A stretch of 62,992 nt of DNA, filler included, from Hausera hauseri (GCA_046269625.1; 9 parts of 9 records of this genome joined end to end with filler, not necessarily neighbours in it), one strand, 5' to 3'; shown: positions 16,960-62,992, numbered from the whole stretch's first letter. Numbers and translations: made by a program. The notes: generated by a model from the sequence alone, not told the origin.

Positions 16960-17673
16960 CGTTATGTTTCGGTAGGCCCTAAGCAATACCCGAACTATAA
17001 CAATAACTTCAACTTTAAGACAAATTTAAAAGAAGGAACGGATTAACGTTCTTGACTAATCGTTTGTGTCTAGATTTTAAAATGCAGGTACTGTATGCGG
17101 TTCTCTGAAAAATTTGATTCCGACTCCTACTTATTTACGTTTACGTAAGAATTTAGGACATTCTGAAACTCAAACCTCCCGTCAGGGGCGGTGGAAAATT
17201 ATTAATAAGTTTTAAACATACACAAAAATATATTATTACAACAATGAACAAACCATTACGGCGCACAGGTCGTCAAGGAATAATTATATCGGCTTTCTTG
17301 ACCTTGAATTCCTTAGACACAAATCGTTTTCGCTCTCTAGTTTTCACTCTAAATTCTCTCTCGACATTCTGAATTGGCTGCTTATATATACTTATCAGCC
17401 CATGTAATTTCTCTTGACCTACTTTGAAACCAATTTACGTATAATTTTTAAGCATTTTATAATAATTCCAGAACATTACACAATACTTTTTAATCATTTC
17501 TTAGATGAATGTAGGCGTAATTTCTCTTTCTGCTTATTTCATGTTCTAGGTCAAATCTATTTCTGATTAAACAATTTCATGATATTTCTTAAAAATATAA
17601 TTTTAAAATATGATCTTTATACATTTGTACATGTCTTACACTTTTTCACTATTTCAAATGTCCCTTTACCACA
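16960..17673 (-). repeat. Putative 3' LTR
   Basis: On the minus strand it starts TGT immediately after a purine tract and has a TATATATAAG box near 17385. The distal end is a guess. Confidence 0.45.
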
Positions 17674-20600
17674 CTTCTCCTCCCTGAGTGGCAACCTCGG
17701 ATGTGCCAATTCCATCAGAAGAGAAGCCACGGTTATAGGTTCTCTGTAATAATTTCAGCCGTCTTCGTAAACGTGCTTGTGAGTATGTCCAGGGGTTAGG
17801 TCCCAATGAGTAACTAGTCCTTGGTCGCTCCGGTCGTATGTTTATGGTTCGGTTGCTTTCACTATTAGTAAAATATGGTAACTTTGTAGCTTTGGCCAGA
17901 CGCACTTTGCATTCTCTAACGTCCAAGTCTATAGACAGCTCCTACGATATTTGTCTGCAGTCGGTGTTTAATAAAATCACGTGCCCTTGATTTAGACTCG
18001 CTTTACAAACAGGGCATTCGTCGACCTTTTCCAAGTCCAGGTTTGCATCAGCCACAATTTCAATTTGTTCCATTACCACGCCCTTTGAATTCTGGTATAG
18101 GTATCCAAATAATTCTTTTTGTTTGCGTCGAATGAACTTTATCTGGGGTCATTTTATACGTCGAACAGAGTCCATTCAACGACCTCTTCTTCGTCTAGAT
18201 AGGGTATGCCCATCTGCTTATACTGTCGCTTCATCTGTATTTTCACTGGGGCATCTACCGGTACCGTTATTTTTTGTTCCAATTCTTGAGCGGCAAATGG
18301 GTGCCATGTACTTCCTATATCCGAATTTTCTCTGGTACAGGGGTTTTCATGTACTTTTCGTTTGAGCGTGGTTTGCACATAGAAGAGTGCCTCTTTAATT
18401 TTTCCATGAAGGACATATTATGCCATTACTAAGACTTTGAGGAGTGTCATTAAACTGACTATTTCCTTTGGGTTCACTAGTTTTCAGCAAACCATTCATC
18501 TCTGTCATTCTGGTTTTCCTTGCTTCCTTTTCCTGAGTTCTAATCGGCTGTTCATAAGAAGTGATTTTTGTTCTCTTTGTTTCCTGTTTGCTGCGTTTTT
18601 CGGTTTTCTGCCGCTTTGGATTTGTCTTGGGGGTTATTAACTGGATTTCTACTTGGTTTTTGATTCTGGCTTCTGTTTCGTTTAGGTTACCTCAACTTAC
18701 TTGATTCGCTGGAGAACTGGTACTAGGCAATCCATATTTTGAAAACGGCCAATATTTTTGTTCTTACTCCGTACTATATACTCAAAAAGGGGAGACGTAT
18801 ATTTTTCTGTTTCCCTTTTAGCTGTCCTTTCCTTCTTCTGCTTATTTGATTTATGTTCTGACGTTACTGGGTGTTCGTTTTTCTCCAGAGATTTGGCTGG
18901 AATCGAAATTTTTTTGTATGACTGTGAAATGTGAGAAGAGCTGCCGTTGGAATTTTCTTTACTTACTATTGTAACTTGAAAATTATAATCGTCCTTGGGA
19001 CTGATTAATCGTTTCGGAGAATAAGTACAAAACTCTCGTTTATATTTTTGACTCAGTTTCGTTGGCTCCGAGGTAATATGGAGATTCTGTATTGGGTTTA
19101 TTGGCAACTATTCGTGATCCAAACGTAGAGATGCATAAATGTTTCTTAGGTACTGAGTTCGCTGACTTTCGATTAACAACTTCGATAACTTAAAATATAT
19201 GTCATTAATAGCCTCGACCATTAATATGAAACGAGAGCCTTCTGCGACAGGCTGCAATAGATGACCACTCTTTTTTGTCAACAATTGGTTAATATGGGTA
19301 GTGACTGTGGGGTGTTGTCCCATTTCTCGAATTTCGGCCAAGATTTTTCGTTCCATCTCGAATTTATCGAGAATATTTTCAACTTCGTAACCGACAATTA
19401 CGTGTCTCTATAGAAAATGATTAATTGCCTCCCGGAACTCAGGGTAATCTTTTCTTTTAGTTAACTGCTCCTTTCAGATGCAAGTGGAGTCCTTTATATT
19501 CATTCTAAGTGCAATCTGTTTACTCATTATCTCCGTTCCATTGATATCGCGGATCGAAATTTCAAGAGGGGTACACTCCATCCTTCTTGGTTTTCCACGC
19601 AGTTCACGACTAGAATTCTGGCATTTCTTCTATCTGGAATTAATCTATATGAGCCGTTACAATCTTTTATATCTTTTTCGTAAGGTCGCTGTCTGCATTC
19701 TAATATCGGTAGTGGTTACACTGGTGTGGTCCGATAAGTCATTTCTATCATTATCAATGTAGGAATATCACCCATTCCAACTTCCAAGGCTTAGTTCATT
19801 AGACTGAAACTGTACAGTTCGTATGTGCTACATCTCCATTGTTGCCTTTTGTTTACACTTTAAGGCTGGCCAACTCTTCTGTATTTTAGTTCTCCTTCAG
19901 CTGCGTGAATGAAATGCTTAGGGCGAATATACGTGCCGCCGAATCTTTCTTCATAGCATGTAGACAAATTATCCGATTTTCTTGGGTTATCCATTTTAAA
20001 CCGTTTGGTATCTGATTTTCTCGGTTGATTTCGATGTAGGATTCTGCTTTGAATTTTTCACTAATTTATATGTAGAAACCTTTCGATAGGAAGTAAGTAT
20101 AGTGGTATGTTGTTGAAGGAAGTCTGGTTGGGATTCTAATCCGATCATTTTCACCTTTTCCTCTATATTTACAATTATAAAAAATAAATAAGGATTAACC
20201 TTAAGGCAGATCATTGTTTTGAAATAAAACGTCATTCCTGTCTGATAATAGGATAAACTGATCTGTAATTGTCAAGTGATTCTATAATAAATATCGTTTA
20301 TAAACTCCCTTTCCCTTGCTTTCCCATTTCCGATTTTATGACGCTTAGAATATATTTTGGAAATTACGACAATGGTCGCAATTATCATTACAAGAAAGAA
20401 CACTGACAAGCTTGTAATCGGTTAGTTCGGCAAAGTTGTTAATTCGGTCGACTTTTCAGTTGTAATTGTATTTGTATCTTCATGTGGTTCTGCGTGAACT
20501 TCGCTCAATATTTGCCACGTAAAGTCTTGTCTTTTGGTCTTTTGCGGAAATTTGTATAACATTGTCGTATAGCCGTCACAATAATTTACAATGAATTTCA

Positions 20601-21645
20601 TGGCTACCTTTCTTTAACACTAAAACTTGATTAGTATGCAAAGTTCTACATTCAATTTTAACTTCGTAATTTAATTTCTTTTCAACGGAAAGCATGATTT
20701 TATAATGAAAAGTACTTAATAGGTATATCTTCTAATTCTCCTTTAGGCATCTTACTTGAGGTGACGACATTAGTAATAGTACTCGGAACAATAATCAGTT
20801 TTCTTGCAGTTACTTCTAAGGAATTTTCCATATTCGATCTTTCGGTTAATAGCTTTTTAGGTGAATGCTTGATTTACCGATCCGAATCCTATATAGATCG
20901 AGATGTATCTTGAATTTGTGGCAAATTGTTACATTACATCATGGAATGGGTCTCCTGTATCCGACATAACAATAATTCACTGAAGTAGTTGACTTCTTTA
21001 CTCGTATGAACTAAATGGAAATTTGTCTGTTGCTGGTTAGCGTTCTCTTGGTTTTTATCTAGATAAATCCAATTTGATGTCCTTAGAAACCTCGATTATA
21101 TTATCATTTAACATTTGCTTTTGTGGATTTGTGGTCTGGACCATCTAGTCAATTCTTGCTTCATTAATTCGATTTTGGGTTAATATAGTTAATCTGCACT
21201 GTGGATCTACTTCGGCCTGAATTTTATCTAGGTTTTGGTAAATCATGCAATATGTGTAAATGTACGATTATCCGCAGTCTACGTCACAACACCATTGTTG
21301 AACTCCTTGTAGGAAATCAAAGATCTGTGTTTCATTCTTGACTTTCTCTTGGTGCACTGTCTGAAAGTGTATGAAATCTCTAGACGGCTTGTCTGCCTTA
21401 AATGCGACACACTGGGTATGATGGACGATTTAATAAGGTTTAAAGGACCGTAGATTTTCCATCTCTTTTTGCTTTTCTTTTTTTGGTTAATCTTCGTTGT
21501 ATTCCGCTTTTACACATTCCTTAGATATCTTCTACAGATGACTCTCCCATATCCATTGGGTTTTTACTCTTGGTACATATGGAGCGATTAGTGATTTGCA
21601 CATACGACATCGGTTGAAGAAGTTTATTGAAGAAGTTTTCATTTC
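17666..21645 (-). pseudogene. Post-integrase accessory ORF: signal-peptide remnant, Cys-containing ectodomain, Thr-rich stalk, TM helix, DEDDh-like domain, long tail
   Basis: Manual read-through gives SLIAPYVPRVKTQW (about 21553-21594), TNTITTEKSTELTT, TM ITSLSVFFLVMIIATIVVI-SKIYSKRHK (about 20335-20420), and an exonuclease-like stretch IPD...ILVVNCV / LEISIRDINGTEIMSKQI...FREAINHFL*RHVIVGYEV (about 19320-19655). Confidence 0.65.
17674..17685 (-). promoter_or_regulatory. Polypurine tract
   Basis: Minus strand AGGGAGGAGAAG|TGTGG, overlapping the end of the last ORF (QGGEVW*). Confidence 0.65.
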
Positions 21646-21689
21646 TCTTTAGCTTCGATTCTGAGTTTAATTGTAAGAAATCAAATTTT

Positions 21690-22520
21690 AGCTTTTATTT
21701 AACCTTATTTTCGTTTTAACAACTCTTTGCACTGATACAACTTCTCCTTTATTTTTTTTGCTAATACAAACTGTAGTTAGTACGGGTAAGTTTCAATGAT
21801 GTGCCCTATTTGGCGACTGTATAGTGTACATAAATTCAGTTTTCTTTTTCTAAATCGTGTGGTTTAGCTTTTTTGTCATACTGCTTTTCAAATTGTTCTT
21901 GGTATTCTCAAGATAACTCTTTTGCAAACCCCAACACTTGTAATCTCGTCTGAAGTACTTCCACGACGTTCTTCTCCAAGTCTTCAGGATTTATCGTATA
22001 TGGTGTCATTCCTAAATCTGCTGGTAATATCGTTTTACTCCCGTACATAATAAAAGTAGTGTAAATCCAGTCACGGGGTGTGGTGTCGCGTTAATAGCAA
22101 ACTGCGTGCCTTCCAAAAATTCATTCCAATCTTTCTCGTCTTTTGCTAGTATCGTTTATAGAATTCGTATAACCGTTGCGTTTATTCGTTCGACCATTCC
22201 TTTACATTGAAGTGATAGGCTGTCGTGGTTAATCGTTCAATCTCAAATATTTAGGTGACTTTATCAAACAGTTCACATGTAAAATTCCTTCCTCGATTAG
22301 TCAAAATCTGTTCGAGAGGTCCTTATCTGAAGATAATTTTTCCTACTGCGGTTTCTGCCAGTTTCAGCCTATTGATCAATTAATGCTATTAGTTTTACAA
22401 AATTAGTTAGACGGTCAATACATGTCAAGATGTATTTGTTACACTTTTGAGTCGTAGGTAACGGTCCTACAATATCCATAAACATTGCTTGCATGGGTCT
22501 GTCCGAAATGTCGGCTACAA
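21690..22520 (-). pseudogene. Gypsy-type integrase core and C-terminus
   Basis: RPMQAMFMDIVGPLP...KYILTCID, TTAYH/QCKGMVERIN, KDWNEFL..TQFAINATPH..TGFT, KQYDKKAK. Confidence 0.88.
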
Positions 22521-22558
22521 AATGTCGCAGTTTTCTTTGATCCGTTTATTTGTTTCAG

Positions 22559-22654
22559 TTGGTGAAACGTGTATATAAAGGTATACCTCTCCAGCTGAGA
22601 GGCCAAGTTTGGGCCTTGCTTTTGGACATAGAAAAAGTGAAGCAAGAAAACAGA
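22559..22654 (+). CDS. USP6NL: Exon of a USP6NL/RN-tre-like TBC RabGAP (vertebrate-like)
   Basis: Acceptor TTTGTTTCAG followed by [31 protein letters not shown], matching the [19 protein letters not shown] motif. No clean donor site seen. Confidence 0.72.
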
Positions 22655-23234: not shown

Positions 23235-24182
23235 TTATGTCCTTCTTATTTAATTTTGTTTTAGCTTAAGCTATTTCTTTCAATGAAAGGTAGATACCTT
23301 TATAATTGATTTTAGACATTTCCTAATTACATTCATTAATCGTTCCGATAATTTTAAATCTCATCATTTCTTCAGGGTTTTCTGAATATACTACCGTTGC
23401 TACTTCTGTCATCTTTACTTCTTTAGCTCCTTCTTTATAGGTCGTGGTCTCTTTTCGGCTGTTCTTCCTATCGATTTATTGAATTTTCTTTATTTTAGCA
23501 ACGTCAAATGGCATCTATTCAAGGGTACTTCCCAAGTCATCTTAGATTCTCCAGTATCACATTCCCCATTTTCGTATTCACACTCACTCATTGTTGTCAT
23601 GAGTTTAGTTTGTGAGTCAAATAATTTTTCATATTCCTTCAATTGAACTTGGTAGTCTACGATGGCTACTGTTCTAGGTGCAGTGGTACCTCCAACATCG
23701 TAATCTACTCCTTTATAGCTGCCATCCTTTGTTTTATCTATTCTTCCAGCTCTGAAGATTGGAGTATATTTTATTTTATTTTGTACTGCTGGTATCTATG
23801 TATTTTGTATTGTTATGACTCTTATTTTAAACGCGTCTTGACAATCCGCACGTGATATTATTATCGTTTCGAAAGGCGTTGTTTGTTCAATAATAGCGGA
23901 ATTCCCAGAATATTATGCACAATTGAATAGGAAAAATGATTTCTTTACATAACATTCTCTGATTTTAGCCATGATAAATTCTGACTCCTGGTAGACCCAA
24001 TAACTATGGCCGTTAGTTGTTATTAACTGTTCTGGATCAGCTTCCGGGCATTTTTCCAGATCCACCAGGGAGTACTTTTGTCCTTCTTTAGGCTTCAAAC
24101 AATCATAAGCCACTATGCCCGTTGCCTTAGGCATGCAAATGGATGTTATTAATAACAATTGTAATATCTCCATAAATGACAT
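23235..24182 (-). pseudogene. Chuvirus-like (class III) envelope glycoprotein, N-terminal half
   Basis: Signal peptide MEILQLLLITSICMPKATG, then IVAYDC.......SL.D...C...VYQ......IRECYV......NC. Read-through continues ISRADC, DGSYKGVDY, CEYENGECDTG..MTW.....C, a Cys pattern like chuviral G. Confidence 0.75.
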
Positions 24183-24378: not shown

Positions 24379-25711
24379 TTAGTTAATCACGATTACTTTA
24401 TATAGCAGATAAGCGACGGCTGTTACGACTTTTTCTCTAGTGATTCCTGTGGCAAACATTTTTTCTAATATGTCTTGTTCGTGTAGCTCATTAATTCTCT
24501 CTTCATTAATATTCTCGTAGAACTGTCTGATAACTCTTAACATGCCATTACGCAGCGTCTGGAACAGTTCATCGGGGATAGTAATTTGCATATCAAATAA
24601 TGTAAATGATGTATGCAACTTTGCTAGTAACGTTCTTAACAAGAGTTTTATGTCTATTGATTCTGGCGTTGTATCTGTTCCTGCCAGTAATAAACGCAGT
24701 ACTATTTCCTCATTCCTGTCTCTTTTACTTCGTATATCACTTATTTTAGTCCCTTTTGGCTGTCCTCTTCTTTTAGTTTCTGTTTGTACCGTAACATCCT
24801 GCGTATCACCGGTAGGTTGCTCTTCTGCTTCCGGTGGTTGTAGTTCCCTCATTATATTGTCTATTGTTTCCTCCGTTCTTGCGTCAGGGTGTACCTCTGT
24901 TATCCTAATTGGGCTGTATTCTCTCACTTCTACAACCAATTCGTAATAATGTATCGTAACCATATAACGTTCTTCCATAAAAACGTAGTCCGTATACCTT
25001 CTCTTTGTAGAACGGTTTTACTTTTTCGATCTTTTCCCTCAACGTTAGTATATCATCCGCTTCATTCATTCGGATGACTCTCATATCTTGATTTCTCTCT
25101 TTTAACGTTATTCTTACTGATTCGTTTCTTCCCGTCTCGTCTTCAGCTACCTTGGCCAGTATCGTCCGTGCTATTTCTCGTATTGAACTGGTATCGTGGG
25201 CGAATAGTTGTAATTGGAATAGAATTTCGTTTATCTTATCTACAGATACTATACTATCTATTAGTTTTAATATTATACTTGTTGCTTGGTTTACGTCAAC
25301 TATATTCTCAGAATCAATAGCAATAACTGCTTGAATACTGTCATTTTCAGCATCTAAGTCTACCTCTATATCGTGCATTACCTGTTCAATCACGGTTTCA
25401 TCGAATATCTTTGTAGGTTGTACTGCCTTTTCACTTTCTTTTGATGCCAATTCGCCTTGCTTACTTCTTCGTCCTCTTTCCTTTTGTTCCGCATCGCTTT
25501 TATCCACAAAAGTTTCTCTAAATTCTACTTCTTCTATTATCGTTTTTTTACATTTCTTTCTTCCTTGACGAGGTTTTCCTCCTTTTAACTTCTCTTCCGT
25601 TACATAAGCACTGTTTTCTCTCAATCTTTTCTGTTGGACTCCATAATCCTTTAATTCCATATCCAACTGCGTTCTAATATGTTGAGATAATATATCATTA
25701 ACACGATTCAC
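24379..25711 (-). pseudogene. Helical, charged linker region between gag and glycoprotein (ORFs 24905-25711 and 24379-24978)
   Basis: Two long overlapping co-oriented ORFs, probably one frameshifted reading frame. No domain recognised. Confidence 0.55.
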
Positions 25712-25797
25712 ACTTTCTTTCTTTTTATCTTCCTTCTTTATTTCATATTCGTTATCCTCAGTCTCATATTCCTTATCCCATAATTCATCCGAGATAG

Positions 25798-26782
25798 CTA
25801 ATGTGTAATCTTTTTTTGTTTATTGCCGTTAGACTTTGCCGAACCTTTTTTTCTTGACCTACATGCCTTTGCTATGTGGCCATATTTGTTACAGTTAAAG
25901 CATTTTAACCTCCCTTCCGAATTTATATTAGGTAGCGCCCTTCCGTCCTTTGTTGAACCATTTTTCTTATATGATTTTTCTCCATACTTCTTTAATTTAA
26001 ACCTCACCTTCTTTTCTACATCTTTTTCAGCCTCTGTGGCTGACGTCTGTGAGGGACTTCGGTTTCCATCGCATCGTTGATACTTCTGTGTACTATTGTT
26101 CCTTCGTCTATCATAATTATTATTATCGTTTCTTGACTTTGTCCACCAATATAATTCGGCGTCTCGTTCAGCTTTTCGTGCTTTCCTTATTGCTTCTTGA
26201 AATGTAGGCGTGTCAGATTGTAGAATTGTACTTCTTAACTTTCCTTCCAACCCATATTGGAATTGAGCCAACAGTGCATTACTTCTTATTACTGCATCAG
26301 GATAGGCCCTTGCGGCTCACTTTTCCAGTGCACAGACAAAATCCTGGACTGTCTCATTCTTTCGTTGCCTCCTTCGTATAAATTCTTCTATCCTCCCTTT
26401 CCAAAGAGATCAACGAGGAACTTTTGAGGTAACTTACTTTGACAGTTTTCCAATCCTTTTTGTCTTCTTCTGGCATCTGGAAATAAATCGTTAATGCAGT
26501 TCCTTTAAGATGGAGAGGTAACCTCTCCATTCTTTGTTGGTCATTCCATCCGGAACTTTTTGGATACACCTCATATTCCATAATAAAATCTTGTACATCT
26601 TCCTTTCCTGAAAATTTCTTCATGGGTAAGGTGAAGTCAGCTTTAGACTGTATCACCTGTTCTACGTTATGGTCGTTTCGAGCCATTTTGTTTTCTTCTT
26701 CTTCACTTAGATTATTCAAAAATTCCAAACCAAATGGTACATTATCGTTCGTTCTAAATGGTTTGCCTTTACCGGTCGTCAT
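25798..26782 (-). pseudogene. Gypsy-type Gag with CCHC knuckle, frameshifted
   Basis: KFSGKEDVQDFI..YE......GW.......LPLHLKGTA, QFQYGL...LR, and CFNCNKYGHIAKAC. Confidence 0.9.
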
Positions 26783-26834
26783 TTTGCTGCTTCTAGGTTC
26801 CTTAACTTATCTAAAGGTTTCTTTATGCGAGAGG

Positions 26835-26852
26835 TCCCTGGTGACGGCACCA
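26835..26852 (-). promoter_or_regulatory. Primer-binding site, tRNA-His type
   Basis: Minus strand TGGTGCCGTCACCAGGGA, 3 nt after ...GAACA and 5' of gag. It resembles the tRNA-His complement TGGTGCCGTGACCAGG. Confidence 0.75.
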
Positions 26853-27114: not shown

Positions 27115-27639
27115 AATGATATCCGGATTACTTAGAATTTATTTCATTATTTATTTACTTATGGATAAAACTAGAACGATAACGTTTCTCTAATACAAAA
27201 ATGTATATATGCAATCCAAGATAATAAATAAGATATGAGTACCATCAAAATACGTTAACAATCATCAATTAACAAAATCCCATCAAATAAAATACTTACA
27301 CGAAGACATGATGATATCGATAAGTAACGAATTTTTCTTCTTATTATTTTACATGAAACACTACTACGTTGTATAGTAATTTGATTTATTACTCGTAATA
27401 ACAACTGCTATATCGTTCATAAAATTGTGGTTAGTTAAAATAACAGATGGCCAATACAAAAAAATAATCCACTACTTCACATATCAAAATAGTAGTTAAA
27501 ATGAAGTCGCATAAAAAATGTCATATGTGGTTTATTGTTTTCACAGCAATTTGAGATAGTAATTAAATAGAGTCACATGTGGTTTATTGCTGATTTATTC
27601 CACAGAATCGTCGGGGATTCGGAGAAATTGTCCCGAATT

Positions 27640-28151
27640 TGTTATTGGTCGAGTGATAGGGGCATGTGTATGAATTTATCTGTGGTTTTCGATTTATATC
27701 GGATGGATTCTGGTTCGTAAAGTTCATCATCTATGACGATTGTTTCATCCACCTGGAACTTTCGCTTTCTGCCTCATAAGGATGCTGTTGGTGCTGTTCG
27801 CACGCTATCAGAGGTCGTACTTCGTGTGATGAGTTCGTCATTCCATTTTAACTGTCGACAAATCGATTGATAGCATTTTACCAGCGCGGTACTAAGAAGA
27901 GGAAACGCCTTCGTATCATAGAATTTCCAAGCAAGTTCTTTATACTTACTTGCTGTTATTTAGTATTTACGGATCACCTCTTCGTGATATAATATATCGC
28001 GAACTCCGGCAATCCGCCAAATAGGGCACTTGAAATGATTGATTATCATTTTCATTACGTCGACTCCGATTACTATTCTATCTGTAATTACTTCTGCTAC
28101 TTTCCGGTGGAAGTTTATAGAATCGATTTGATTATTGATATTTACTTCTGC
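27640..28151 (-). pseudogene. C-terminal part of the DEDDh-like accessory ORF
   Basis: EVNINNQID...ITDRIVIGVDV...HF..PI..IAGVRDILYHEE aligns by eye with EADIIGQLD...LTGKMIIGMNV...HFS...I..ILGIKDLLYAQE in ORF 60939-62981. Confidence 0.7.
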
Positions 28152-28251: not shown

Positions 28252-28720
28252 CTGTTTTGATTCAACCCGCTTTTACGAATTTCATATACATATTCTAACG
28301 TAGTTTTGTCTTCCCACCACTGGGCCTTAATTTTTGGTATGTATGAGGCAATTAATGATAATGCTAATATTATCTGCATGAAAAATTTCTATGTTATTCT
28401 CTTATCCTGATTTTTCTGGGGTTCTTATTATTGCAGCGTAAATTGTAACGTTTATTTGGTTTTATTTCACTTTTAACAACTGTTTATACTGATACAACTT
28501 CTTCTTTTCCGATTTTGTTGATATAGACTAATTGGCGTGGTTCTAGTCTATATCTAGCCCTTGCCCGGTAGGAGTAAATTTTAATTACGTACCTTTCTTG
28601 GCTACTGGATAGTGTACATAAACCCAATTTCCTTTTTCCAAATCATGAGGTTTTGCTTTCTTACCTTATTACTTTTTGAATTGTTCTTGATATTCAAGTG
28701 ATAATGTTTTCTCAATCTTT
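28252..28720 (-). pseudogene. Integrase C-terminus followed by a signal-peptide-bearing ORF start
   Basis: Nucleotide similarity to 21700-21930. From 28379 it reads MQIILALSLIASYIPKIKAQWWED, homologous to SLIAPYVPRVKTQW. Confidence 0.7.
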
Positions 28721-28729
28721 CACAGTAGT

Positions 28730-29225
28730 TGCAATAGATCAGAAAGATTGGGATGAATTCTTAGAAGGTACTCAGTTTGCAATTAACATGACACAACATT
28801 CGGGCACTGGATTCACACAATTTTTATGATGTATGGAAGAGAAGCAATATTACTGAAGGATTTAGGAATGACACTATGTACAATAAATCCTGAAGACTTA
28901 GAGTAAAACTTCGTTGAAGTAATATAGTCGATATTGCAGAAGTGTTGAGAGATTGCAAACGAATTATCTCAAGAATACCAAGAACAGTTTAAAAAGCAGT
29001 ATGACAAGAAAGACAAACCGCATGATTTAGGAAAGGGAAATTGGGTTTACTTACAATGTCCAGTCGCCAAGAAAGCACGTCATTGAAACTTACCTGTACT
29101 GGGAGAGGATAGTACAAAATTATCAGTACCACACCAACTACAGTGTATATAAACAAAGATGGTAAAGAAGAAGTTGTGTCAGTGCAGAGAGTTGTCGAAA
29201 CGAAAATAAGGCCGAATATTCAAAT
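28730..29225 (+). pseudogene. Integrase C-terminal fragment, same family, opposite orientation
   Basis: KDWDEFLEGTQFAINMTQH..TGFT and EYQEQFKKQYDKK.KPHDL. Confidence 0.8.
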
Positions 29226-30079: not shown

Positions 30080-32482
30080 TAAGGCCTGCCGAACCGTACG
30101 TTTTTTCAAACCCGGTTTTCCGTTGCTGAAATTATTGAAAACCGGGTACCCGGTTCCGACCCGGTTCTGAGAAAAGCTGAAAAAAGGAAAATTTTTTAAA
30201 TAAATATTTAATTTATTTTTCAAACAAAAAAATACAAAGAACAGTTATCAATTATTTATTTTCCGATTTAAAGTGTGATCTCAAAAAGGATAACATATCC
30301 AGTGTGTCATCGTTCAAGGATGATCTTATTTTTGTAACAATACGTCCACACCCAGAGAAAACTCGTTCTGACTGTACACTTGCCGGTTTTATTGATTTTA
30401 AATTATTGTAACATCTTTCGAGGTTTGCCCCTCGGCTGCCTTCGACCTCAAAAATTGAAATTTCCTTTTTGATTATGTTTGTAATACTTTTGGATGTTCG
30501 GTTTTTAGCAATAATTTTACAATTGTTGTCCTTTTCTATGGCATCGTCTAGTCTTTCTCGTAAGGTCATGTTACGGTTGTCTTCGTGAAGGACTTCGTCT
30601 TGCGATTCAGAATCAGACAAGTTGTTGTTATCGGACAATGTTAATAGCTTAATTACCATAGATGTAATAGCTGCCTTGGGTAAACATTCAAATTTTAGTA
30701 ATGGATCTAAATCGGCATATTCTTGGTTTTGTTTGTGCAAAAATTGCAACAAACTTGATGCGTTTGTTCGTCGCTCGTTTATTCGTCTCGCAAGCGATTT
30801 CTTTAATCGAATAGCAAATTCATTACTACCCAAATTATTGAACATGAATGAAATTGTTGTATCAGCAGAAAGTAATGTCGCATCGTGACGACATAACGCA
30901 TCGACACCTAATTTCACAGGTTCAAGTGTCGTTGCCAAATTGTGAATTTTACAAAATTCGTCTTCTTCAAATGACCAGTTTGACTTCAGATCAATTAAAG
31001 CTTTGAGCGTGCAGCTTTTAAGTTCATTAAATCGTTGTAACATTAAGTAGAGACTATTCCAACGTGTCTTTACGTCAATTTTCAAGTGAATTTCTTTTCC
31101 AAACTCTTCTTTTACATATTTTTGTAGCAGATCATTTTTAGTGGGTGATTTTCGGAATAATTTTACTACAGACCTGACCTTTTCGATCAATGAGTGGAAT
31201 TCAGGCACCAGTTCCGGCTCAACCGCAATATTTTCAACTAGAAGTCTATCGTCCGACTCAGAATTATCGTCAGATTCATCGCATGAGTCAGAATTATTGT
31301 CACTAACATCAATTTGTTCATTGGGTAAAGATATTGGCTTTTTGTACAACACATCGGTAACTGCCAGATGAACTGCATGGGCGAAGCAAAGTTGTTGTTC
31401 GCAAGAAAGTAATTTTCCAACTTTTTGCATCACTGAGGCACCGTCAGTTGTGACACATATAACGTCTTCATGCAAATTGATTCCAACAATTTCCAATCTC
31501 TCCTCTAGAAGTTTGATGCAACTTTCTGCTGGCAGTGATCCTTGTATTCGGATCAGACCCAAATTCCAAAATTCACCTTTAATGTGCACGTTAACGTTCA
31601 AATAGCGACGGTTTCTAATGGATGTCCACTCGTCGAACGTAAGACTAAATCGTTTGCCTTGAGACTTCAAAGATTGTAATTCAACCTTGTACTGTTGCCG
31701 GATTTTTCTACCATAATTCATAACAATGTTTCGAATTGTATTGGCTGACTTTGGTACATCAAATTGTCGTGCTAACAGCGATTTGCGCATCTCGGAAGAT
31801 GTAATGAAAACACTGAACGGCAAACCATCAGCTGCAGTCATACGGGCCAATACAGCTTCCATTGAGTTGTCATGTGCAATGAAATAGTTTGTGATGGATG
31901 ATTTTGATGCGGAACGCTTTTGTGATGGTGTTTCATCTGCTGTACTTTCAGAAGCAAGTCTCTTTACTGGATTTGAAAGGACAGAATGAACTGATTTCAG
32001 ATGCTTATGTAAGCTACCTGTTGATCCGCCAGATGTCTTCAACACTTTTCCACATATCTTGCACTGGGCAGATTGTCCAGATGTTTCACGTAGAAAATGC
32101 TCCCACACTGGGGTTTTATCAATGACACTTTTCTTCATCGCTTCGAAATTCGGCATTGGGGTTATTTTATTTCTGTTAAATGTAAATCTAAATTTTGTTT
32201 ACACGAAACGATCAATGAGCAAATCAATTTCAATTAGTCATTTTTCTAAATACCATGTTGCTATGTTTGATATTATCTACACGTTTCTTACAGTGGAAAA
32301 GAAAAAAAGCATAGATTTACAATGAAAAAGTTTTAGACAATAAAATTTCAAATACAATTGTACAATTTTTTTCGAAACCGTTACCCGGTTCTGAGATCTA
32401 GTCGGAACCGGGTGAACGGTTCAAGGAATATTACCGGGTACCCAGGTAACCGGATACCAGGGAACCGGGTCTGCATGCCTTA
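30080..32482 (-). mobile_element. Full-length hAT DNA transposon
   Basis: Imperfect 17-bp TIRs (TAAGGCCTGCCGAACCG and reverse complement TAAGGCATGCAGACCCG), ACCGG/CCGGT/GGTACC subterminal repeats at both ends, and an uninterrupted transposase. Confidence 0.9.
30252..32156 (-). CDS. hAT transposase with BED zinc finger, 634 aa, intact
   Basis: VWEHF...C..C...L.KHL...H (BED), FSLTFDEWTS, TTDGA, CFAH..HL, DVKTRWNS, and ASVQSERVFS (catalytic E and dimerisation domain). Confidence 0.96.
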   Translation of the reverse strand: MPNFEAMKKSVIDKTPVWEHFLRETSGQSAQCKICGKVLKTSGGSTGSLHKHLKSVHSVLSNPVKRLASESTADETPSQKRSASKSSITNYFIAHDNSMEAVLARMTAADGLPFSVFITSSEMRKSLLARQFDVPKSANTIRNIVMNYGRKIRQQYKVELQSLKSQGKRFSLTFDEWTSIRNRRYLNVNVHIKGEFWNLGLIRIQGSLPAESCIKLLEERLEIVGINLHEDVICVTTDGASVMQKVGKLLSCEQQLCFAHAVHLAVTDVLYKKPISLPNEQIDVSDNNSDSCDESDDNSESDDRLLVENIAVEPELVPEFHSLIEKVRSVVKLFRKSPTKNDLLQKYVKEEFGKEIHLKIDVKTRWNSLYLMLQRFNELKSCTLKALIDLKSNWSFEEDEFCKIHNLATTLEPVKLGVDALCRHDATLLSADTTISFMFNNLGSNEFAIRLKKSLARRINERRTNASSLLQFLHKQNQEYADLDPLLKFECLPKAAITSMVIKLLTLSDNNNLSDSESQDEVLHEDNRNMTLRERLDDAIEKDNNCKIIAKNRTSKSITNIIKKEISIFEVEGSRGANLERCYNNLKSIKPASVQSERVFSGCGRIVTKIRSSLNDDTLDMLSFLRSHFKSENK

Positions 32483-33748
32483 GTTAGACAATTTTAAAAA
32501 ACGCCACGGCATCACGTTTAAGCCGATCCAGAGCGAAGCTGGAGCGGTAGATTCATAATCTCTTCTTAGGTAGCAACAGCAGATTCTTCGGCCATTACTC
32601 ACACAGTTCTTCGCAGACAATGTCTTCAATCTGGACGAAACTGGACTCTTCTGGCAACTACTTTCGGACAAGACAATGGTTTTCAAGGGAAAGCAGTGTA
32701 CAGGAGGAAAAAAAAGTAAGCAAAGGATCACTCTTCTGGTTGGGGAAAACATGAGTAGCAGCAAAAAGTTTCCTCTTCTGGTGATTGGCGCTTCCAAAAG
32801 ACCTCGTGCCTTCAAGAACAAGGAGACCCCGGTCGAGTACAAGGAGAACTCAAAGACATGGATGACAGAGAAGTTTTCGAGGAGATATTGCGTGCGTGGG
32901 ACGGACGACTTGGCCAGCGGGAACGCAGAGTGCTGGTCTGTCTTGATAACTTTGCTGGCCACCTTCCAGAGCTCCAGATGAACAACATCCGACTAGTCTT
33001 CTTCCAACCCAACACGACAGGCAACTCGCAACCAATGGATCAAGAAATCATAGAGAACCACAAGCACCACTACAAGAAGCTCCTGCTATGCCGCCGACTT
33101 GAGGCCATGGATAAAGGAAAGGAGTTCAAGTTTACATTCCTCGACGCTTTACACGTCGTCCGGCGTGCTTGGTTGCAGGTCAGCAAGTCGACGATCAGGA
33201 ACTGTTTTGCTAAGGTCAAGTTTATTGAAGAGGAGATTCAAACTGAAGTACAGGATGCAGAGCTGCTCGATATCTGGGAAGCTCTGCCTGCTGAGGAAAA
33301 GATGTACGAGAACGAGGAGATCGACCTGTCTGACTTCCTCAAAGCTAATGAGCGCTTCGCGACTGGCGGGTCTTTTACACTGGAGGAGATTTCGGAGGAG
33401 ATGCTATGCGGTGAAGAGCTGGTGGAAAGCAAAGATGACGATATAACTGTTGAGGAGGAAGTCGTTTTATTCGAGGAAGCTCAGCGCGCTTGGAGCACCG
33501 TACGGAAGTTCATGCAACTGAAAAGTGAGAAGCCCGGTGTGATGTTAGCGTGCAATCAGTTGGATAACGAGATGCACGTGATCGGCCAAAAGAAAATGCG
33601 CCAGACGACGATTCTTGAGAGCTTTGGGCCGATAAGTAACTTGAGAAAATAAATCCGCTTTTACAAACCCTCGTTACTATGCCACTTTCTCTACTATGCC
33701 ACTATTGCTCGGTCCCGACAGGTGGCATAGTAACGAGATTTGACTGTA
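32483..33748 (+). mobile_element. Tigger/pogo element, 5'-truncated by the hAT end, frameshifted transposase, right TIR plus TA
   Basis: LDNFKKRHGI, FNLDETGLFW, GGKKSKQRIT, NSKTWMT / LDNFAGH, PNTT...QPMDQ. Terminal GTGGCATAGTAACGAGATTTGACTG-TA, with internal inverted copies at 33670-33705. Confidence 0.9.
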
Positions 33749-42992: not shown

Positions 42993-44253
42993 ACAAGTAT
43001 TCAGCACAAATTATGAAAATTATTTTATATCAGAAAAGGAGATCATACAGGCAGATAACTTGCCAGTCAATAAAGTCCAATTAGTGAACATCGCTGATTA
43101 TATCGTCAATAGAGATGACTTCTTATTTTATCTCACCCACAAAACGATAGAAGAAGTGTATTCCGAAACAATACAAAATTTTTGTAAGGTAAATTTTGAG
43201 ACATTAAGGAATCGACTGGCTATCTATGCTTCAAACCCGGAAATGATAACAATAACATTACCATTCGGTGAAGGAATTCAGGGCAGAGTCTTAGGAGAAG
43301 TGTTGTTTACCTACAAATGTAAGAGAATAAAGTTACCATTAGTTACTGGTACCCCATGTTACTCAGAAATACCAGTTAAGTATAAAGATGAAACTCGGTG
43401 TGTTCAACCAATAACTAGAGTATTATTGGCACCACACACTATACCAACAAAAATTCAAAATTGTACAGCAATGAACAAGCCATTTATCAAATACGATAAT
43501 TAAGACTTGTAGGTTAGACTACCTGACAGAGACAGAGTAAAGGAAAAACCCAAGAAATTAACAATGACTAATCTTCGACATGCTATCGAAACGAACATGT
43601 TTACTGATGTATCAAAGTCAGCATTGTATGATAAAAAAGAAATCGACTCATTTGTAAAATTTTTGGCATATCCAGGACATCAAGAACAGGTGGTAAATAG
43701 AGGAATACATAGAGTAATTGATGATTCTGTTGGATAAGGAAAATGGAATCGACTGTGGACACCCAATACTTATACAAAAATAGTTTCCAGTTTATGGCAC
43801 AAAATGTGGGGTGGATTTCTAAAATTTGGACAAGTGGCCTTAGGATTTCTTGCCATTTATTTCATCATGCAAACTTTGAAAGTCTGTATCAATTCTGTAC
43901 TGAATGCCTATGAAATTTATAACCTGACTGTGTTATCATTGAACATAATCCGTTCTCTATTTTCCCCTCTAGGCAAATTTATTAAAGCATACCATGAGAA
44001 ACAATGGCGAGGGAAATTAGAAAAACATGTGGACTATAAGACGGACAAACCAATATTGAAAGATACCTCATCAAGTTCAGATGACAATTCCCCAGGAAAT
44101 TACTCAAAACCAGGGATGTCAAAGAAAAAGAAACGAGAATTAAAGGGTAATCGCAATATATCAGATGCACCATATGAAAGTAAAAAGTTACCAAATCTAC
44201 CTGACCTAAATGATCCATCTGCAAAAAAGAGAAGATTACGTACGGTTAGGTAA
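42993..44253 (+). pseudogene. Chuvirus-like class III glycoprotein, C-terminal half with TM anchor and basic tail
   Basis: VY......FC......L.N.L.I...NP......GEG......GEV...YKC.........CYSEIPV.Y......QPITRVL, then WGGFLKFGQVALGFLAIYFI...LKV.IN..LNAY.IY. Confidence 0.8.
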
Positions 44254-44689
44254 AATTCCTAAATATTCACAAGAGGAAATATTACACTCCATTATTACTC
44301 AGAGTATGGAAAGAAACCGAATATCTTTTCCAACGTCTTCCAAATTGGGTGCAATACCACCTATACCCTATTATCGAATAAAGACAATAAAACCAACGGA
44401 TGACCTCAACCCTGACCAAGCAAATGATAAAAAGTCACATTATCTGATTTCCACGGTAGGGCCCAGTGATACACATCAAAGCATAAAACAACTCATCAGT
44501 TGCTATCTAGACTTAACAACATACAAACAGCAACCAAAAGACCCGGAAAACGATACGCAATCATTAGACAGTCTAACGATTATATTATCTAATGGAACCA
44601 AAAATGTCTGTGCCGCCAGTTATACTCTGATGGAACTACACAGCCGATCATAATGACGTACTAACCTTTCTCGAATTGATAATAGATAA

Positions 44690-47600
44690 TTGACGTCATA
44701 CGATGGTTCACTTTGGCACATTTGATATAAACGCAATGGCAGATACAAGAGCCAGTGTTTCATTAATTGAAAAACATGCGATACCAAACGAATATCAGTC
44801 ACAAATAAAATTGGCCTCTAAGGCATGTATGGGTACGACTTCAGCTTTTTAGCAGTGCTTAAAACCATATGGGTATTGGAAATGCGAACCTATAATTTGT
44901 GGTAAAATACTAAAAGTGACTTTATATGTGATGGCAACTCTAGATCCCCGATGTATTTTAGGAATGAATGTATTAAGAAATGTGGAAGGATTTCACATAA
45001 ACTTGCAGTCGAGATCGCTTTGTCCAAATAATGAGGATATTCCAGATAAATACGATAAAACGGACACTTGGATAGGACATTTAGAGAACATACCACCTAA
45101 TTCTAGGATGGTCATACACTCTAGAACAATGTTTCCAGATAATAAAATAATTGAATTTATACCACGGACATTTCAAAATTGATTGTTGTTACCACATTAC
45201 TGTGTCAATGTAAATGGAGGAATAATTCCCATTGAAGTCTTGAATTTATCCCTAAATACATCACAATATTTGCAAAAATGAAATGGGGTCAAGCGTATGA
45301 AACTCTCCGTCAACCTGAATATGACAATAAAATCGCAGTAATCACCATAGATAAGGAAAATGAAGCAGATGATATATTCAATGTTGTTCTTACTAAAGCA
45401 AAGAAAAAGCTATCTGTGGAATACCTTGAAAACTTTTCAGATCTCATCCGTGAATACACTGATATATTTGCCAAAAGTGAAACGAACATTGGACGAACTG
45501 ACTTAATCGAGTTCAAGTTAGCATTCATGATGGATCCTCAAACTGGAAAGGAAACAGACTTACTCCGACAGCCAATACCAAAATGGTACCCACCTCCAAA
45601 ATCACTTCAAAAGGAAATTGAGGAGCAAATACAAGCCATGCTAGAAAAAGGCATCATTGAACCAAGTCAATCGCCATGGCCATTGCCTATAGTTATGGCA
45701 AAGAAAGCCAATACTACGAAACACACCGTTTATGTGTAAATTATGTTACACTGAACAAACATCTCGCAAATCATGCTTACCCAATGCCACGAATACGAGA
45801 TATTATTGACGAGTTAAAAGGATGCAAGTACTTTACCACTTTGGATCTACAAAGTGGATTTGGGCAGATTCCAGTAGCCGAAAAGGATCGTTGGAAGACT
45901 GCATTCAAGACACATGCAGGCGTTTATCAATTCACTCCTATGCAATTCGGACTAAAAACAGCACCTACATTTTTCCAGGAATTTATTAGACTTGTCTTAA
46001 AAGGGGTACGTGGACTATCATGCATAGGCAATATTTTAATAGCGTCAAAAACATGGTCGGCACACTTAGTCGAATTGCGAGAAGCATTCGACCGAATCAG
46101 AATGGCTAAATTGAAACTAAACCCAAAAAATACGAATGGTGCAAAACTGAAGTCAGATATCTTGGATTTGTTGTCTCAAACCAAGGTATATCAACCAGTC
46201 CAGATTTAATATCCCAAATCCCGGAATATCCCCCACCAACCAACGTACCTGAGATGCGAGCTAGGTTAGGATTAGGAGGATTCTATGCTACGTTTATTGA
46301 AAACTTTGTGGAAATTAATCAACCTCAGTATAAAGTACTTAGAAAGGATCAAAAATGGGAATGGACGGAAGAAAACCCAAAGGCATTTAACGAAATAAAA
46401 AGACGCTTAGTATCAGCACCCATACTACGATATCCGGATTTTTCACTTCCATTGATCTTGAAAACCGAGGCTAGTATCAAAGCTATTAGCTACATTTTGG
46501 CACAACAGTGTCCAGAAGAGACAACTGAGCATTGTATTGCATATGGAGGACGACGTTTAAATAAGGCAGAAAGGAAATATTCTACCAAGGAATTAGAATT
46601 ATTAGCAATACGCGACGGATTGCGACATTATGAATATTACGTCTATGGTCATAAAGTTATAATATTTACGGACCATAAAGCACTGCTCTCTTTGCGTTCA
46701 AACAATAGACACGTATCAAGTCGACTCCAAATATGAAAGTTAGAGCTTCTGAATTATGATATTGAATATCGATATCAACCAGGAAAGGATAATGGAGACG
46801 CAAATTCAATCACTAGATTACCTTACGAAAATATAGTTGCTGCAGTTTATAAACCACAAGACAGAGAAGAATATAAACAATTAAATGAGAAAATTATTAA
46901 TGATATGTTACAGGAACAGAGACAAATACAAGTTCAAAATATTGAAACTTTACAAAATCAAGATCCATTTATAGTCCAAGTCAAACACTTAATAAATGGT
47001 CATATGGACGATCAAGTATAAAGTCACACTCAGAAATTTTACGAATAATATAAGGAACAATTAGACATTAAAAATGGAATACTAAAACTTAAAGTTGGTG
47101 AAAGAAAGCTAATCATTGTACTCAATTCAGAAATCAAAACAGTTATGCTTCAAGAACATGATTCACACCTGGCGAGACATCCGTCGTTAAACAAGACTTT
47201 GAAACGCATCGTTACTAAATATTATTGGCCGCAAATGAACAAATATATTGAAGGGTGGGTACGTTCTTGCAAAATGTGTGCTACTAGGGACATTAGAGGA
47301 TTTCGTGTAAAATCCCTTTTGGGAAGCCTTCCAGAAGCACGACAACCTATGGAAGTTTGTTCGATGGACATTTCGGGACCGTTTCCAGTATCTGAATCGG
47401 GATACAAATACATTTTGTCACTTGTTGATTACTATTCTAAATATGTTGTTCTAATACCTTTGAAAAATATGACCAGTCATACAGTAGCCAAAGCATTCTT
47501 TTACGATGTTGTAGCCGTATTAGGCAGACATATAAAGTTATTGACTGACCGCGCACCATATTTTATTAGTGAATTCTTCGACAAATTATCAAAGATATTC

Positions 47601-47826
47601 CAATGTAAACATCTATTGACAATATCCTACCATCCGCAATGTAATGTTATGGTCGAACGAATGAATCGGACCATTCAAGGTATCTTATCAACAAAGGTTT
47701 CACATGACCAAAAGGACTGGCACCTACATCTTAAAACAACGGTCTTTGCAATTAATACTACGCCTACGAAAGGTACTAACCATTCGCCATTTGAACTGAT
47801 GTTTGGCCGCCTACCACTTCTACCAT
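44690..47826 (+). pseudogene. Gypsy Pol: protease, RT, RNase H, integrase
   Basis: ADTRASVSLI and ILGMNVL (PR). GIIEPSQSPW, FTTLDLQSGF.QI, FGLKTAP, with YxDD decayed to CIGN (RT). TEAS, YST.ELELLAI, FTDHKAL (RH). H....H...C..C, DISGP, TDR, YHPQCN.MVER (IN). Confidence 0.95.
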
Positions 47827-60938: not shown

Positions 60939-62992
60939 TTAACTGGTTGAGCTGGTATGCGATTCGACATTAATGTCATTTGAACCGGTTAAGTCGCCGG
61001 TATACGATTCAACACCTCCCTCCTTTGATGGTGCTGTCCCCAGCACCAAAGGGTATGTTTTGAGAATGCCGTTGGAGTATTGATAGTTGGCCGAATGGAT
61101 ATTAAGCCAATGTCCTTTGTGTTGGATTTTCTTTTTAAGCGTAATAGTTTCTGCTTTTGTATACTTCTTTTTGTTCGGTTTTTTTATAATATTGGCTATG
61201 ATTGATTTAGTTGAATCATCGTAGGAAGTATGGGGTTGCTGTATTGCAAGAAATGAATTCGTAGTCTCCGTAATTGAGATAGATTGATCTGAGAGGTCTT
61301 CAATATCCATAGATGATGTGGCTGGCATAGATTGTTCCGTATTTTGGGAGGCCTCTCTTATTTTCTTATAAATTTTTAGCATCGTTAGAGCTTTTTTATT
61401 TGTTCTTTGAGGGTATTCTCCATCATTATACTTTATTAGAATTTTTGCTTCAGTCAATTGATTATCTGGATTTGTTTCCTGGGCATAAAGAAGGTCTTTA
61501 ATTCCTAATATAGCATTAATATCGAAGAGAGAGAAGTGGAGGTTGTTTTCATACACATTCATCCCTATAATCATTTTTCCAGTTAATTGCCGTCTGATTG
61601 TAGGTTCCGCCTCATATTGATCAAGTTGGCCGATTATATCGGCTTCTTTTAAATTCGTTATTCGACAATTATAGTTATCAACGCGATTTCGTGGGCAGAT
61701 AACCTGGTTATACAAAATATTTCCAGCTAGGTCCATAATAGTTATTTCGATAAGTGTTTGCTCTTTTGAACGGATGGGTTTCATTAAATACACACCGTTT
61801 ACCGCCATGATAATAACATCTTCATCGGGAATTTGTAAGGATCTAGAGAATGATACGCCTCGTTCCAGTTGTGTTCTATCTGGTAACGGTATAGAGTAAT
61901 TGGTAGGTTTGGGATACTCAAGATGCGGAAGTGTTTCTCTTCGAGTCACCTCTAGATAGATTACTGGTGGGGGTCTATTATGAGGTCGTAAGATTATTGT
62001 AGCGTTTTTATAGAGACGCTGATCAAGCCGGATTGTTGTGAATGGTATGAGATCCACTGTATCTACCATGTCGTTTAAATGGGCCCGGCTTTTTATCTGG
62101 ACAATTTCTTTCACGGCTGAAATATAAACTGAAGTGGTACGATTGGAGAGATCGATAATATCGGATAGCTTAGTTGAGGCAGTGGGTAATTGAATTATAA
62201 GGCCGCTTCGCTGGGTGACCAGATGGCCTTTTAGATTATTTGGAATCAAGGAACACTTTCCGTAATATACATAGTCTTTCTGCATGGTTGCATTGAGATT
62301 GGTGATGATGTTAAAGTAAAATGATTTGGGTCTGTCAGCCATTTCTGAACCTTCTTGAACTGAAAGAGAATATATCAATATAAGATATAGAAGTGTTTTA
62401 GGAATAATATTTTGGTGGGTCGTAATGATTTTGGCGGCCCAATTTTTGATATTTACATCTTTTTGGTTGGTTGCAAGAAATTGTGCAACCTGGTCTTGTA
62501 TGTGAGTGCACATATATAGTGCAACATTTGATAACGGCTGTAATTGCCGTTCGAAATTTGTTGGCTTTTTAGCCTGGGAAAGGGCGTCTATATCTTTAAT
62601 TAAATCTTCATCTTGGGATCCCTCCCTTAATAATTTTAATTGTTGTATCATTTTTCTGGTCTTGCGCATTCTACGTCTTATTCTAGAACAATGAATTATT
62701 ATCGGTAGCAATATAATTATTAAAACTAGGAGAACTCCTAGGGTGATAACCATCCAAAGATATCTGTTAGAATTTTCTATTAGAATTTGTTTGGTGGTTG
62801 TTTTTATAGCTTTTGTCGTGACAACCGTTGGTAATTTTAACGTTTTTTCCAGTTTTTTGACAACTTGTAAAGTCTGTCCGTCTTCGTCCAGTTCCGTTAT
62901 GATTACTTTATAATACGTATTGGCTTCCAAAGGCATACAAGCTGATGTGGGCTCTTCCGGAGTTAAAACTCCTTCGCTCATGACTTTGTGAT
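60939..62992 (-). CDS. Type I membrane protein with cytoplasmic DEDDh/REX4-like pseudo-exonuclease (retroelement accessory ORF), 5'-truncated
   Basis: FN3-like LEANTYYKVII, Thr-rich stalk, TM YLWMVITLGVLLVLIIILLPIII and stop-transfer RIRRRMRK. Then EITIMD..G.ILYN..I.P...V.NY...IT.L.......L.GK.IIG and ALTMLKIY at about 61360-61835. The frame is open to the window edge. Confidence 0.78.
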   Translation of the reverse strand, partial: HKVMSEGVLTPEEPTSACMPLEANTYYKVIITELDEDGQTLQVVKKLEKTLKLPTVVTTKAIKTTTKQILIENSNRYLWMVITLGVLLVLIIILLPIIIHCSRIRRRMRKTRKMIQQLKLLREGSQDEDLIKDIDALSQAKKPTNFERQLQPLSNVALYMCTHIQDQVAQFLATNQKDVNIKNWAAKIITTHQNIIPKTLLYLILIYSLSVQEGSEMADRPKSFYFNIITNLNATMQKDYVYYGKCSLIPNNLKGHLVTQRSGLIIQLPTASTKLSDIIDLSNRTTSVYISAVKEIVQIKSRAHLNDMVDTVDLIPFTTIRLDQRLYKNATIILRPHNRPPPVIYLEVTRRETLPHLEYPKPTNYSIPLPDRTQLERGVSFSRSLQIPDEDVIIMAVNGVYLMKPIRSKEQTLIEITIMDLAGNILYNQVICPRNRVDNYNCRITNLKEADIIGQLDQYEAEPTIRRQLTGKMIIGMNVYENNLHFSLFDINAILGIKDLLYAQETNPDNQLTEAKILIKYNDGEYPQRTNKKALTMLKIYKKIREASQNTEQSMPATSSMDIEDLSDQSISITETTNSFLAIQQPHTSYDDSTKSIIANIIKKPNKKKYTKAETITLKKKIQHKGHWLNIHSANYQYSNGILKTYPLVLGTAPSKEGGVESYTGDLTGSNDINVESHTSSTS

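Follow-up and report, generated by a model that had tools for sequence, protein, structure and literature searches.

Introduction

Retroelements with an envelope gene placed between gag and pol are already described from flatworms and other invertebrates. In the planarian element Burro, Env shares a frame with Gag and protease and lies between the two, and ubiquitin-like and TRAF cargo is also carried (PMC6431247), and errantiviruses of the order GAG-ENV-POL, with an ENV of the HSV/gB type, are found in Platyhelminthes, Nematoda and Bryozoa (PMC13524379; both papers are used here in excerpt). Here we analyse a stretch of DNA from Hausera hauseri (GCA_046269625.1), in the following called the window, which comprises 62,992 nt, filler included, and consists of nine contigs with N-spacers between them. 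Five of these, C3 (14874-23134), C4 (23235-28151), C5 (28252-34717), C7 (42993-47826) and C9 (57692-62992), carry pieces of an enveloped long terminal repeat (LTR) retroelement, mostly in broken frames, and the best explanation of the window is that it holds decayed copies of an enveloped, Burro-like Ty3/gypsy element, probably from a flatworm, several subfamilies being represented. An earlier account (the sequence-only reading) had joined the five contigs into one map with glycoprotein genes on both sides of pol; its comparison with Burro was apt, and its claim to novelty was too wide, since a fusogen gene, G, between gag and pol is already published (PMC6431247; PMC13524379).

Gene order in an intact relative

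The gene order can be read directly from a related locus, L001, which was fetched via its exonuclease-like gene (exo) alone and not via G or pol. It contains a single frame of 3012 residues (2-9037), open at the 5' end and with the end of Gag outside the sequence examined, in which a weak ubiquitin-like domain, a signal peptide, G, a transmembrane (TM) segment, two protease motifs and reverse transcriptase (RT) are followed by RNase H, integrase (IN), a second signal peptide, an ectodomain, a Thr-rich stalk, a second TM segment and a tail. Hydrophobic peaks occur at residues 517, 1083, 2614 and 2900, and Pfam recognises G (E 8.7e-84) as well as protease, RT, RNase H and IN. The exo open reading frame (ORF) lies on the same strand, 964 nt downstream of this frame, after an ORF of 222 residues. 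The proposal that one element type has G before pol, a second protein with signal peptide, ectodomain and TM segment after IN and exo further 3' is thus borne out directly in L001, where G and protease furthermore share a single frame as for Burro/GYPSM1 env, the window copies being too broken to judge this point. The tandem aspartic protease motifs of L001 lie after G at residues 1285 and 1463, and C7 shows only one of them recognisably.

The contigs C4, C7, C3, C5 and C9 are collinear along L001 in the order given by the sequence-only reading, at 26-45% identity. By arithmetic the composite is about 14 kb long, in agreement with the predicted size of well over 10 kb, the L001 record measuring 16.6 kb. 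The whole gene set in all probability belongs to one element type. To judge from protein identities of about 30-50%, the five contigs, as had been supposed, are decayed, diverged subfamilies and not a single copy: 53 of 159 IN positions (33%) are identical between C3 and C7 and 9 of 28 in the G overlap between C4 and C7, and the IN of C7 and L001 agree at 34%. Diverged contigs of run X1 map in their thousands to C7 (7,344) and C4 (7,958), so that these two represent repeat families with many relatives, which does not imply that the relatives are intact. Run X1 possibly comes from the same sample as the window, the depths of its contigs do not give copy numbers, and none of its listed pieces spans a contig end.

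Gag, fusogen and Pol in the window

All five links that had been drawn within single contigs are present at about the coordinates proposed, with the pieces of the element on the minus strand of C3, C4, C5 and C9 and on the plus strand of C7. In C4 the series runs from exo over an LTR and a primer-binding site (PBS) to gag and G, identified by a profile match, an LTR ending in CA, the PBS itself, a CCHC knuckle and Pfam G, respectively. The broken gag (25798..26806) contains the knuckle (zf-CCHC, E 2.1e-5) and matches the Gag of the relative L007 (E 3e-12). It is followed by a linker (24379..25797) in which a weak ubiquitin-like domain lies at 25147-24908 and a helical stretch is also present; the domain scores below the Pfam cut-off both here (E 0.067) and at the equivalent position of L001 (E 0.0056). 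We had presumed the stretch 24741-24382 to be BCL2-like, but neither it nor the other BCL2-like or dUTPase-like candidate stretches found a match in Pfam or the PDB, and its comparison with L001 crossed a frame break and gave no information. Beyond the linker, a signal peptide and the N-terminal half of a class III fusogen G, broken and cut by the contig end, occupy 23235..24182, with matches to Pfam Monjiviricetes_fusion (E 1.4e-7 and 2e-4) and 35% and 32% identity to residues 535-836 of L001.

The C-terminal half of G is found in C7 (42994..44253, TM segment 43834-43890), where it again matches Monjiviricetes_fusion (E 2.4e-20 and 1.1e-14), is 28% identical to residues 812-1151 of L001 and had no match in a word-based protein search. 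It precedes a broken pol (44727..47826), cut by the contig end, with a protease remnant, RT, RNase H and IN at 27-40% identity to residues 1458-2452 of L001. The G > pol link is thereby present as Pfam G followed by RT, RNase H and IN, and the order protease-RT-RNase H-IN with IN last, as in Ty3/gypsy (Metaviridae), is common to C7 and L001. That a class III fusogen stands between the gag and pol genes is seen in C4 as gag > G and in both C7 and L001 as G > pol. Scans of viral contigs and a first metagenome scan provided no reference pol sequences. Between the G tail and the protease of C7, related contigs cover 44127-44612 very thinly, and this part is either a variable linker or a copy-specific insert.

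A second membrane protein after the integrase

In C3 an integrase remnant (21690..22509) is followed by the remnant of a second membrane protein (20272..21640) with many breaks, in which a signal-peptide-like start homologous to that of C5, an ectodomain, a Thr-rich stalk, a TM segment (20418-20362) and a short tail can be made out, the frame of the TM segment stopping at about 20272. The proposed series from IN over signal peptide, ectodomain and TM segment to exo and the polypurine tract (PPT) is hence supported in this contig by hydrophobic segments, profile matches and a PPT followed by TG. C5 carries the C-terminus of IN and then a signal peptide from Met 28379 (28252..28722), cut by the contig end, as the IN > signal peptide link had stated. 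The same end of C5 forms a fold-back (28252-29219), in which inverted copies of the integrase end, about 74% identical, meet at 28721, and which is either a chimera or an inverted insertion. In C9 the end of the protein is preserved (62343..62990), with a conserved motif, the Thr-rich stalk, a TM segment (62750-62694) and a tail in frame with exo; the link from TM segment over exo and PPT to an LTR-like start is likewise confirmed here, since the PPT at 60448-60440 is followed by TG.

Outside the window, the relative L008 encodes the same membrane protein, then two small ORFs and then exo. The L001 and L008 proteins are 18% identical over 345 residues (E 3e-6) and share with C9 a C-x2-L-x3-T-x-Y-x-V motif ahead of the stalk, which we take to recall the FN3 signature. 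They end in ATFV and GVWV, respectively, presumably fitting PDZ-binding patterns. By its hydropathy the second membrane protein is a putative type I surface protein, and the ectodomain, which has no Pfam match, fn3 included, is probably FN3-like in fold, although its structural model is poor.

A 3' gene predicted to combine AlkB-like and ISG20-like folds

The most complete exo gene of the window is that of C9 (60939..62342), which begins at Met 62342, preceded by CAG and corresponding to Met 217 of an open frame of 683 codons. This frame has 31 relatives among 1.84 billion representatives, every match being confined to residues 216-605 and none extending into residues 1-215, whereas a word-based protein search found no match and the ESM Atlas no usable one. 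Pfam RNase_T is found in 11 of the 31 homologues, in 9 of them above the cut-off. Pfam recognises exo in none of the window copies and tblastx found no similarity between C3 and C9; the call rests on homologues and fold. A model of the C9 protein from just before Met 217 (pLDDT, the predicted local distance difference test, 76) has two domains, of which residues 1-141 match the AlkB family (ALKBH6, Z 11.3, root-mean-square deviation 3.1 over 139 residues; ALKBH7, Z 10.8) and residues 180-342 match ISG20 (Z 15.7, deviation 2.4 over 154), so that an AlkB-like beta-helix domain joined to an ISG20-like DEDDh domain is predicted. Of 32 aligned proteins, 15 retain the catalytic D-E...H...D set; the corresponding columns of C9 read A, N, Q and K, and its nearest relative likewise lacks the set. 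The iron-binding histidine of the AlkB HxD motif also seems to be absent from the alignment, as the column assigned by eye holds His in 0 of 24 rows while a different His is kept in 20 of 24.

The remaining window copies are more decayed. In C4 the 3' part of exo (27640..28151) is DEDDh-like with unrecognisable catalytic residues and one in-frame stop per half; a profile of the 31 homologues, whose use is partly circular for C9, matches 28148-27735 (E 2.6e-15), and identity to P0001 reaches 45% over 167 residues. In C3 (19108..20148) remnants of the N-terminal beta-helix domain and the DEDDh-like domain give three collinear profile matches spread over three frames (E 1e-3, 1.5e-2 and 7e-4).

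The link TM > exo of the sequence-only reading is not supported as a single protein. In 16 of 16 fetched related loci exo is a stand-alone ORF without a TM segment, often preceded by a site resembling a splice acceptor, so that two genes are involved, and residues 1-215 of the C9 frame are matched by none of the 31 homologues. Among the window copies and fetched loci, exo appears fused to, or read through from, the TM protein only in C9, and the second hydrophobic stretch before Met 217 may well be a T-rich acceptor region seen in frame and not a TM segment.

Further 3' cargo and its expression

Arrays of small cargo ORFs precede exo in L004 (300-4637) and L006 (54-2995); in them two RING ORFs are accompanied by coiled-coil ORFs and by a complete TRAF-like protein with RING, zinc finger and MATH. 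TRAF/MATH cargo is present in these exo-bearing loci and not in L001 or the window, where C3 retains further accessory ORF remnants (17666..19107), one of them weakly RING-like (18148-17945; zf-C3HC4_5, E 0.026, below the cut-off).

Of 40 plus-strand ORFs in the fetched loci, 19 have TTYAG no more than 2 nt from an early ATG, as against 24 of 1394 ATGs overall; the relatedness of the loci and the definition of ORFs as beginning after TAG both inflate this count. These acceptor-like sites suggest spliced subgenomic RNAs, from which the 3' ORFs may be expressed, either in cis from a 5' leader or by the spliced-leader trans-splicing that flatworms possess.

LTRs, primer sites and tracts

The LTR of C4 (26856..27604) ends in CA, 3 nt before a PBS-like TGGTGCCGTCACCAGG (26835..26852), which we take to be tRNA-His-like. 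Its start is favoured at 27604, near the position 27601 where one run X1 contig ceases to match, with 27114 as the alternative; 27114-26856 resembles the start of the C9 LTR. A candidate C-tract at the PPT position (27605..27620) resembles the CCCCCGAGATA followed by TG that stands before the LTRs of relatives, and since the window contains 8 occurrences of the loose pattern it is weak evidence alone. In C3 a PPT (17674..17685) is followed by an LTR beginning TG at 17673, and in C9 PPT and LTR together span 60097..60448, the LTR beginning at 60439 and ending, tentatively, near 60097. PBSs are thus found in C4 and L007 and PPTs in C3 and C9, while a complete LTR pair occurs on none of the contigs examined, be it in the window or among the fetched relatives.

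The C-tract (CCCCCGAGATA followed by TG, or similar) is found at the PPT position, 3' of exo, in L004-L008, L010-L012 and L015, and L003 has GGGGGAGATA followed by TG in its place; in the C-tract copies plus-strand priming would have to proceed without a purine tract.

L007 has the layout of C4, namely exo, C-tract, LTR (3033-4616), a tRNA-Lys-like PBS and gag, which could arise equally from a tandem array, from a circle with one LTR or from assembly across an LTR that is shared. Over long stretches the LTRs of C3, C4 and C9 align globally at chance. The starts of the C4 and C9 LTRs are nonetheless the best non-self match of each other within the window, and with hand-picked ends, that of C9 set 2 nt too long, their score exceeded 300 of 300 shuffles, yet was equalled by 1 of 1496 unrelated window stretches (4 self-overlapping rows having been removed from 1500). 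We consider this modest support for kinship of the two LTRs.

Proposed mechanism and alternative explanations

From the observed gene order, single frame and hydrophobic segments we propose a polyprotein that would be passed across the membrane of the endoplasmic reticulum (ER) twice by its internal signal peptides. G and the second ectodomain would then be lumenal at first and external later, while Gag and Pol would be cytosolic and remain tethered to the membrane until the protease cuts. In such a tethered polyprotein, capsid, enzymes, fusogen and second surface protein would therefore share the budding membrane without a separate env mRNA. Exo, observed as an ORF of its own, and the other 3' cargo (TRAF, RING and coiled-coil ORFs) would be made as separate cytosolic proteins, likely from the spliced subgenomic RNAs that the acceptor-like motif suggests, and the protein of predicted AlkB and ISG20 folds would likely bind or trim RNA and thereby blunt host RNA silencing, the C9 copy being expected only to bind. 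For the second surface protein we tentatively favour the role of a tether that brings G to the target membrane, a serious possibility though not one we would call probable.

Several observations weigh against this picture. With the second membrane protein as query, the sole match of the word-based protein search was the L008 protein. The ectodomain model is all-beta and poor (pLDDT 45, built from 3 sequences), and its fold matches are weak (best Z 5.8, with none at E 0.001 or Z 6); many of them are FN3 proteins, with which ASF1 is tied. The signal peptide of C5 has its own Met in a frame different from that of the IN end, so that either not all copies may have the protein fused to Pol or the C5 copy has decayed. 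In C9 the membrane protein continues in frame into exo. No LTR pair was seen around L001 and no clear PPT follows its exo, 2,168 bases of its record lying outside the examined part, and the 16 related loci come from two assemblies with near-duplicates among them. Finally, rhabdovirus G and baculovirus GP64 each attach and fuse alone, and the remaining cargo is reminiscent of host signalling (TRAF, RING) and is equally consistent with a decoy role.

Indeed, the second protein of the same element may instead be a host-derived receptor mimic or decoy of FN3 cytokine-receptor or adhesion type, displayed on the producing cell and acting together with the TRAF and RING cargo so that defence or cell death is dampened, G alone attaching and fusing. 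Because relatives carry TRAF and RING ORFs in their 3' cassette, we regard this as nearly as likely as the tether; among the best of the weak fold matches, moreover, are IL-3 receptor beta, integrin beta4 and CD45, and the PDZ-binding-like ends of the L001 and L008 proteins would suit it too. It is however less easily reconciled with the L001 protein being in one chain with G and Pol while other cargo ORFs are separate, and with a place directly after IN that is kept across subfamilies less than 30% alike. That the second membrane segment mainly anchors the Pol end, with the ectodomain as a passenger devoid of binding role, would agree with the very low sequence conservation, but is improbable, since one hydrophobic segment would suffice and since a folded two-domain ectodomain with paired cysteines, a stalk and a second TM segment are kept in L001, L008, C3 and C9. 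A mixture of two unrelated groups, gag-G-pol and exo-bearing, with one inserted into the other's 3' end to form, as a nested insertion, the C4 junction, would draw on the C4 LTR having two possible starts and no preceding purine tract and on the thinness of run X1 contigs over 27171-27662 relative to gag and exo, but is very improbable in view of L001 (all parts in one frame plus exo), the repeated junction in L007, the mutual best match of the C4 and C9 LTR starts, and an IN closeness of C3 to C7 about equal to that of C7 to L001.

Returning to the tether, its truth would mean that the division between attachment and fusion arose in retroelements independently of that in paramyxo- and herpesviruses, and would give a handle on how enveloped elements reach flatworm germ or stem cells. 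The gene of AlkB and ISG20 folds offers what appear to be active and dead versions in one family and is a candidate element-encoded RNA counter-defence factor. The full proposition goes considerably further and is, taken as a whole, speculative and rather unlikely: a lineage of invertebrate LTR elements with two-protein entry, in which a captured class III fusogen and a host-derived FN3 attachment protein would be made as one Gag-G-Pol-attachment polyprotein crossing the ER membrane twice, together with a spliced accessory suite as in a complex retrovirus, including the RNA counter-defence protein, whose catalysis would have been lost in some subfamilies.

Other contents of the window

The remaining contigs hold DNA transposon remnants, a BEL/Pao remnant (10351-14773; DUF1759, Peptidase_A17) and an unrelated GC-rich repeat ORF. 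The richness of the DNA in AT and the kinds of transposon present indicate an invertebrate, and the relatives make a flatworm likely. C5 additionally carries an open hAT transposase frame of 648 codons (30252-32198; zf-BED, dimerisation domain), which a pogo-like DDE remnant (32574-33652) faces. At the end of C3 (14874-15135), beside a Tc1 remnant, a fragment of 87 codons from an NADH dehydrogenase/antiporter membrane subunit (Pfam E 4e-14) is probably a bacterial chimera of the assembly. The open frame of 3221 codons at 47927-57591, of about 52% GC with long internal repeats, had nothing above the cut-off in Pfam and no sequence match in the PDB and probably stems from a different organism. 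Broken ORFs at 582-2445 resemble by eye what we take to be Polinton/adintovirus capsid genes; Pfam gave no match for them.

Comparison with known systems

Fusion and attachment are divided between F and H/HN/G in paramyxoviruses and between gB and gD/gH-gL in herpesviruses, and the possible division of labour proposed here resembles these by analogy only. Paramyxovirus attachment proteins are type II beta-propellers, whereas the protein described here would be type I and beta-sandwich-like and would be released by cleavage of a Pol polyprotein.

Closer parallels are found among retroelements. As in Burro/GYPSM1, an Env with matches to mononegavirus-type fusion proteins lies between Gag and protease, a ubiquitin/SUMO-like domain, here only a candidate with Pfam matches below the cut-off, lies ahead of env, and TRAF/MATH and RING cargo is carried as separate ORFs, here in L004 and L006 (PMC6431247). 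Unlike Burro/GYPSM1, which exceeds 30 kb, the element measures about 14-17 kb, shows one CCHC knuckle and has no BCL2, BIR, ankyrin or dUTPase domain among those recognised, while a membrane protein after IN and an exonuclease/AlkB-like gene are present here and not in those elements as described in the excerpt (PMC6431247). It is classed as Burro-like and not as Burro. Gene order and fusogen class are also those of the GAG-ENV-POL errantiviruses whose ENV is of the HSV/gB type, and the ENV of Smed_errantivirus_1 resembles the G of C4 and L001 by eye, but these elements are annotated with three ORFs only (PMC13524379), and neither 'exonuclease' nor 'accessory' occurs in the main text of that paper. 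In 8 of its 9 flatworm rows no LTR or PBS is called (PMC13524379), possibly because a long 3' cassette could place the LTR beyond the 3 kb searched; the cassette suggests that published GAG-ENV-POL flatworm elements may exceed their annotated length, hence the uncalled LTRs.

LTR elements with an accessory 3' ORF for a DEDD exonuclease are furthermore known in Juno/Vesta of bdelloid rotifers, sister families of which have small TM ORF3s, but the Juno/Vesta ORF3 is DEDDy (RNase D-like) and substitutes for env, whereas here a DEDDh (ISG20-like) domain with an AlkB-fold N-domain accompanies G (PMC5408684, in excerpt). Orchids have gypsy elements that encode an AlkB m6A demethylase and likewise exemplify capture of an AlkB-type fold by a large gypsy element, although in our case the HxD histidine is apparently absent and an exonuclease is fused to the domain (PMC9289625, in excerpt). 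No literature on a post-IN FN3/TM protein or an AlkB-ISG20 ORF in such elements was found, although Grohme 2018, Sacco 2022 or Repbase might describe them. While the layout around G is therefore already known, the new parts of the element are the second surface protein and the gene of AlkB and ISG20 folds, with putative functions in attachment and in RNA counter-defence, respectively.

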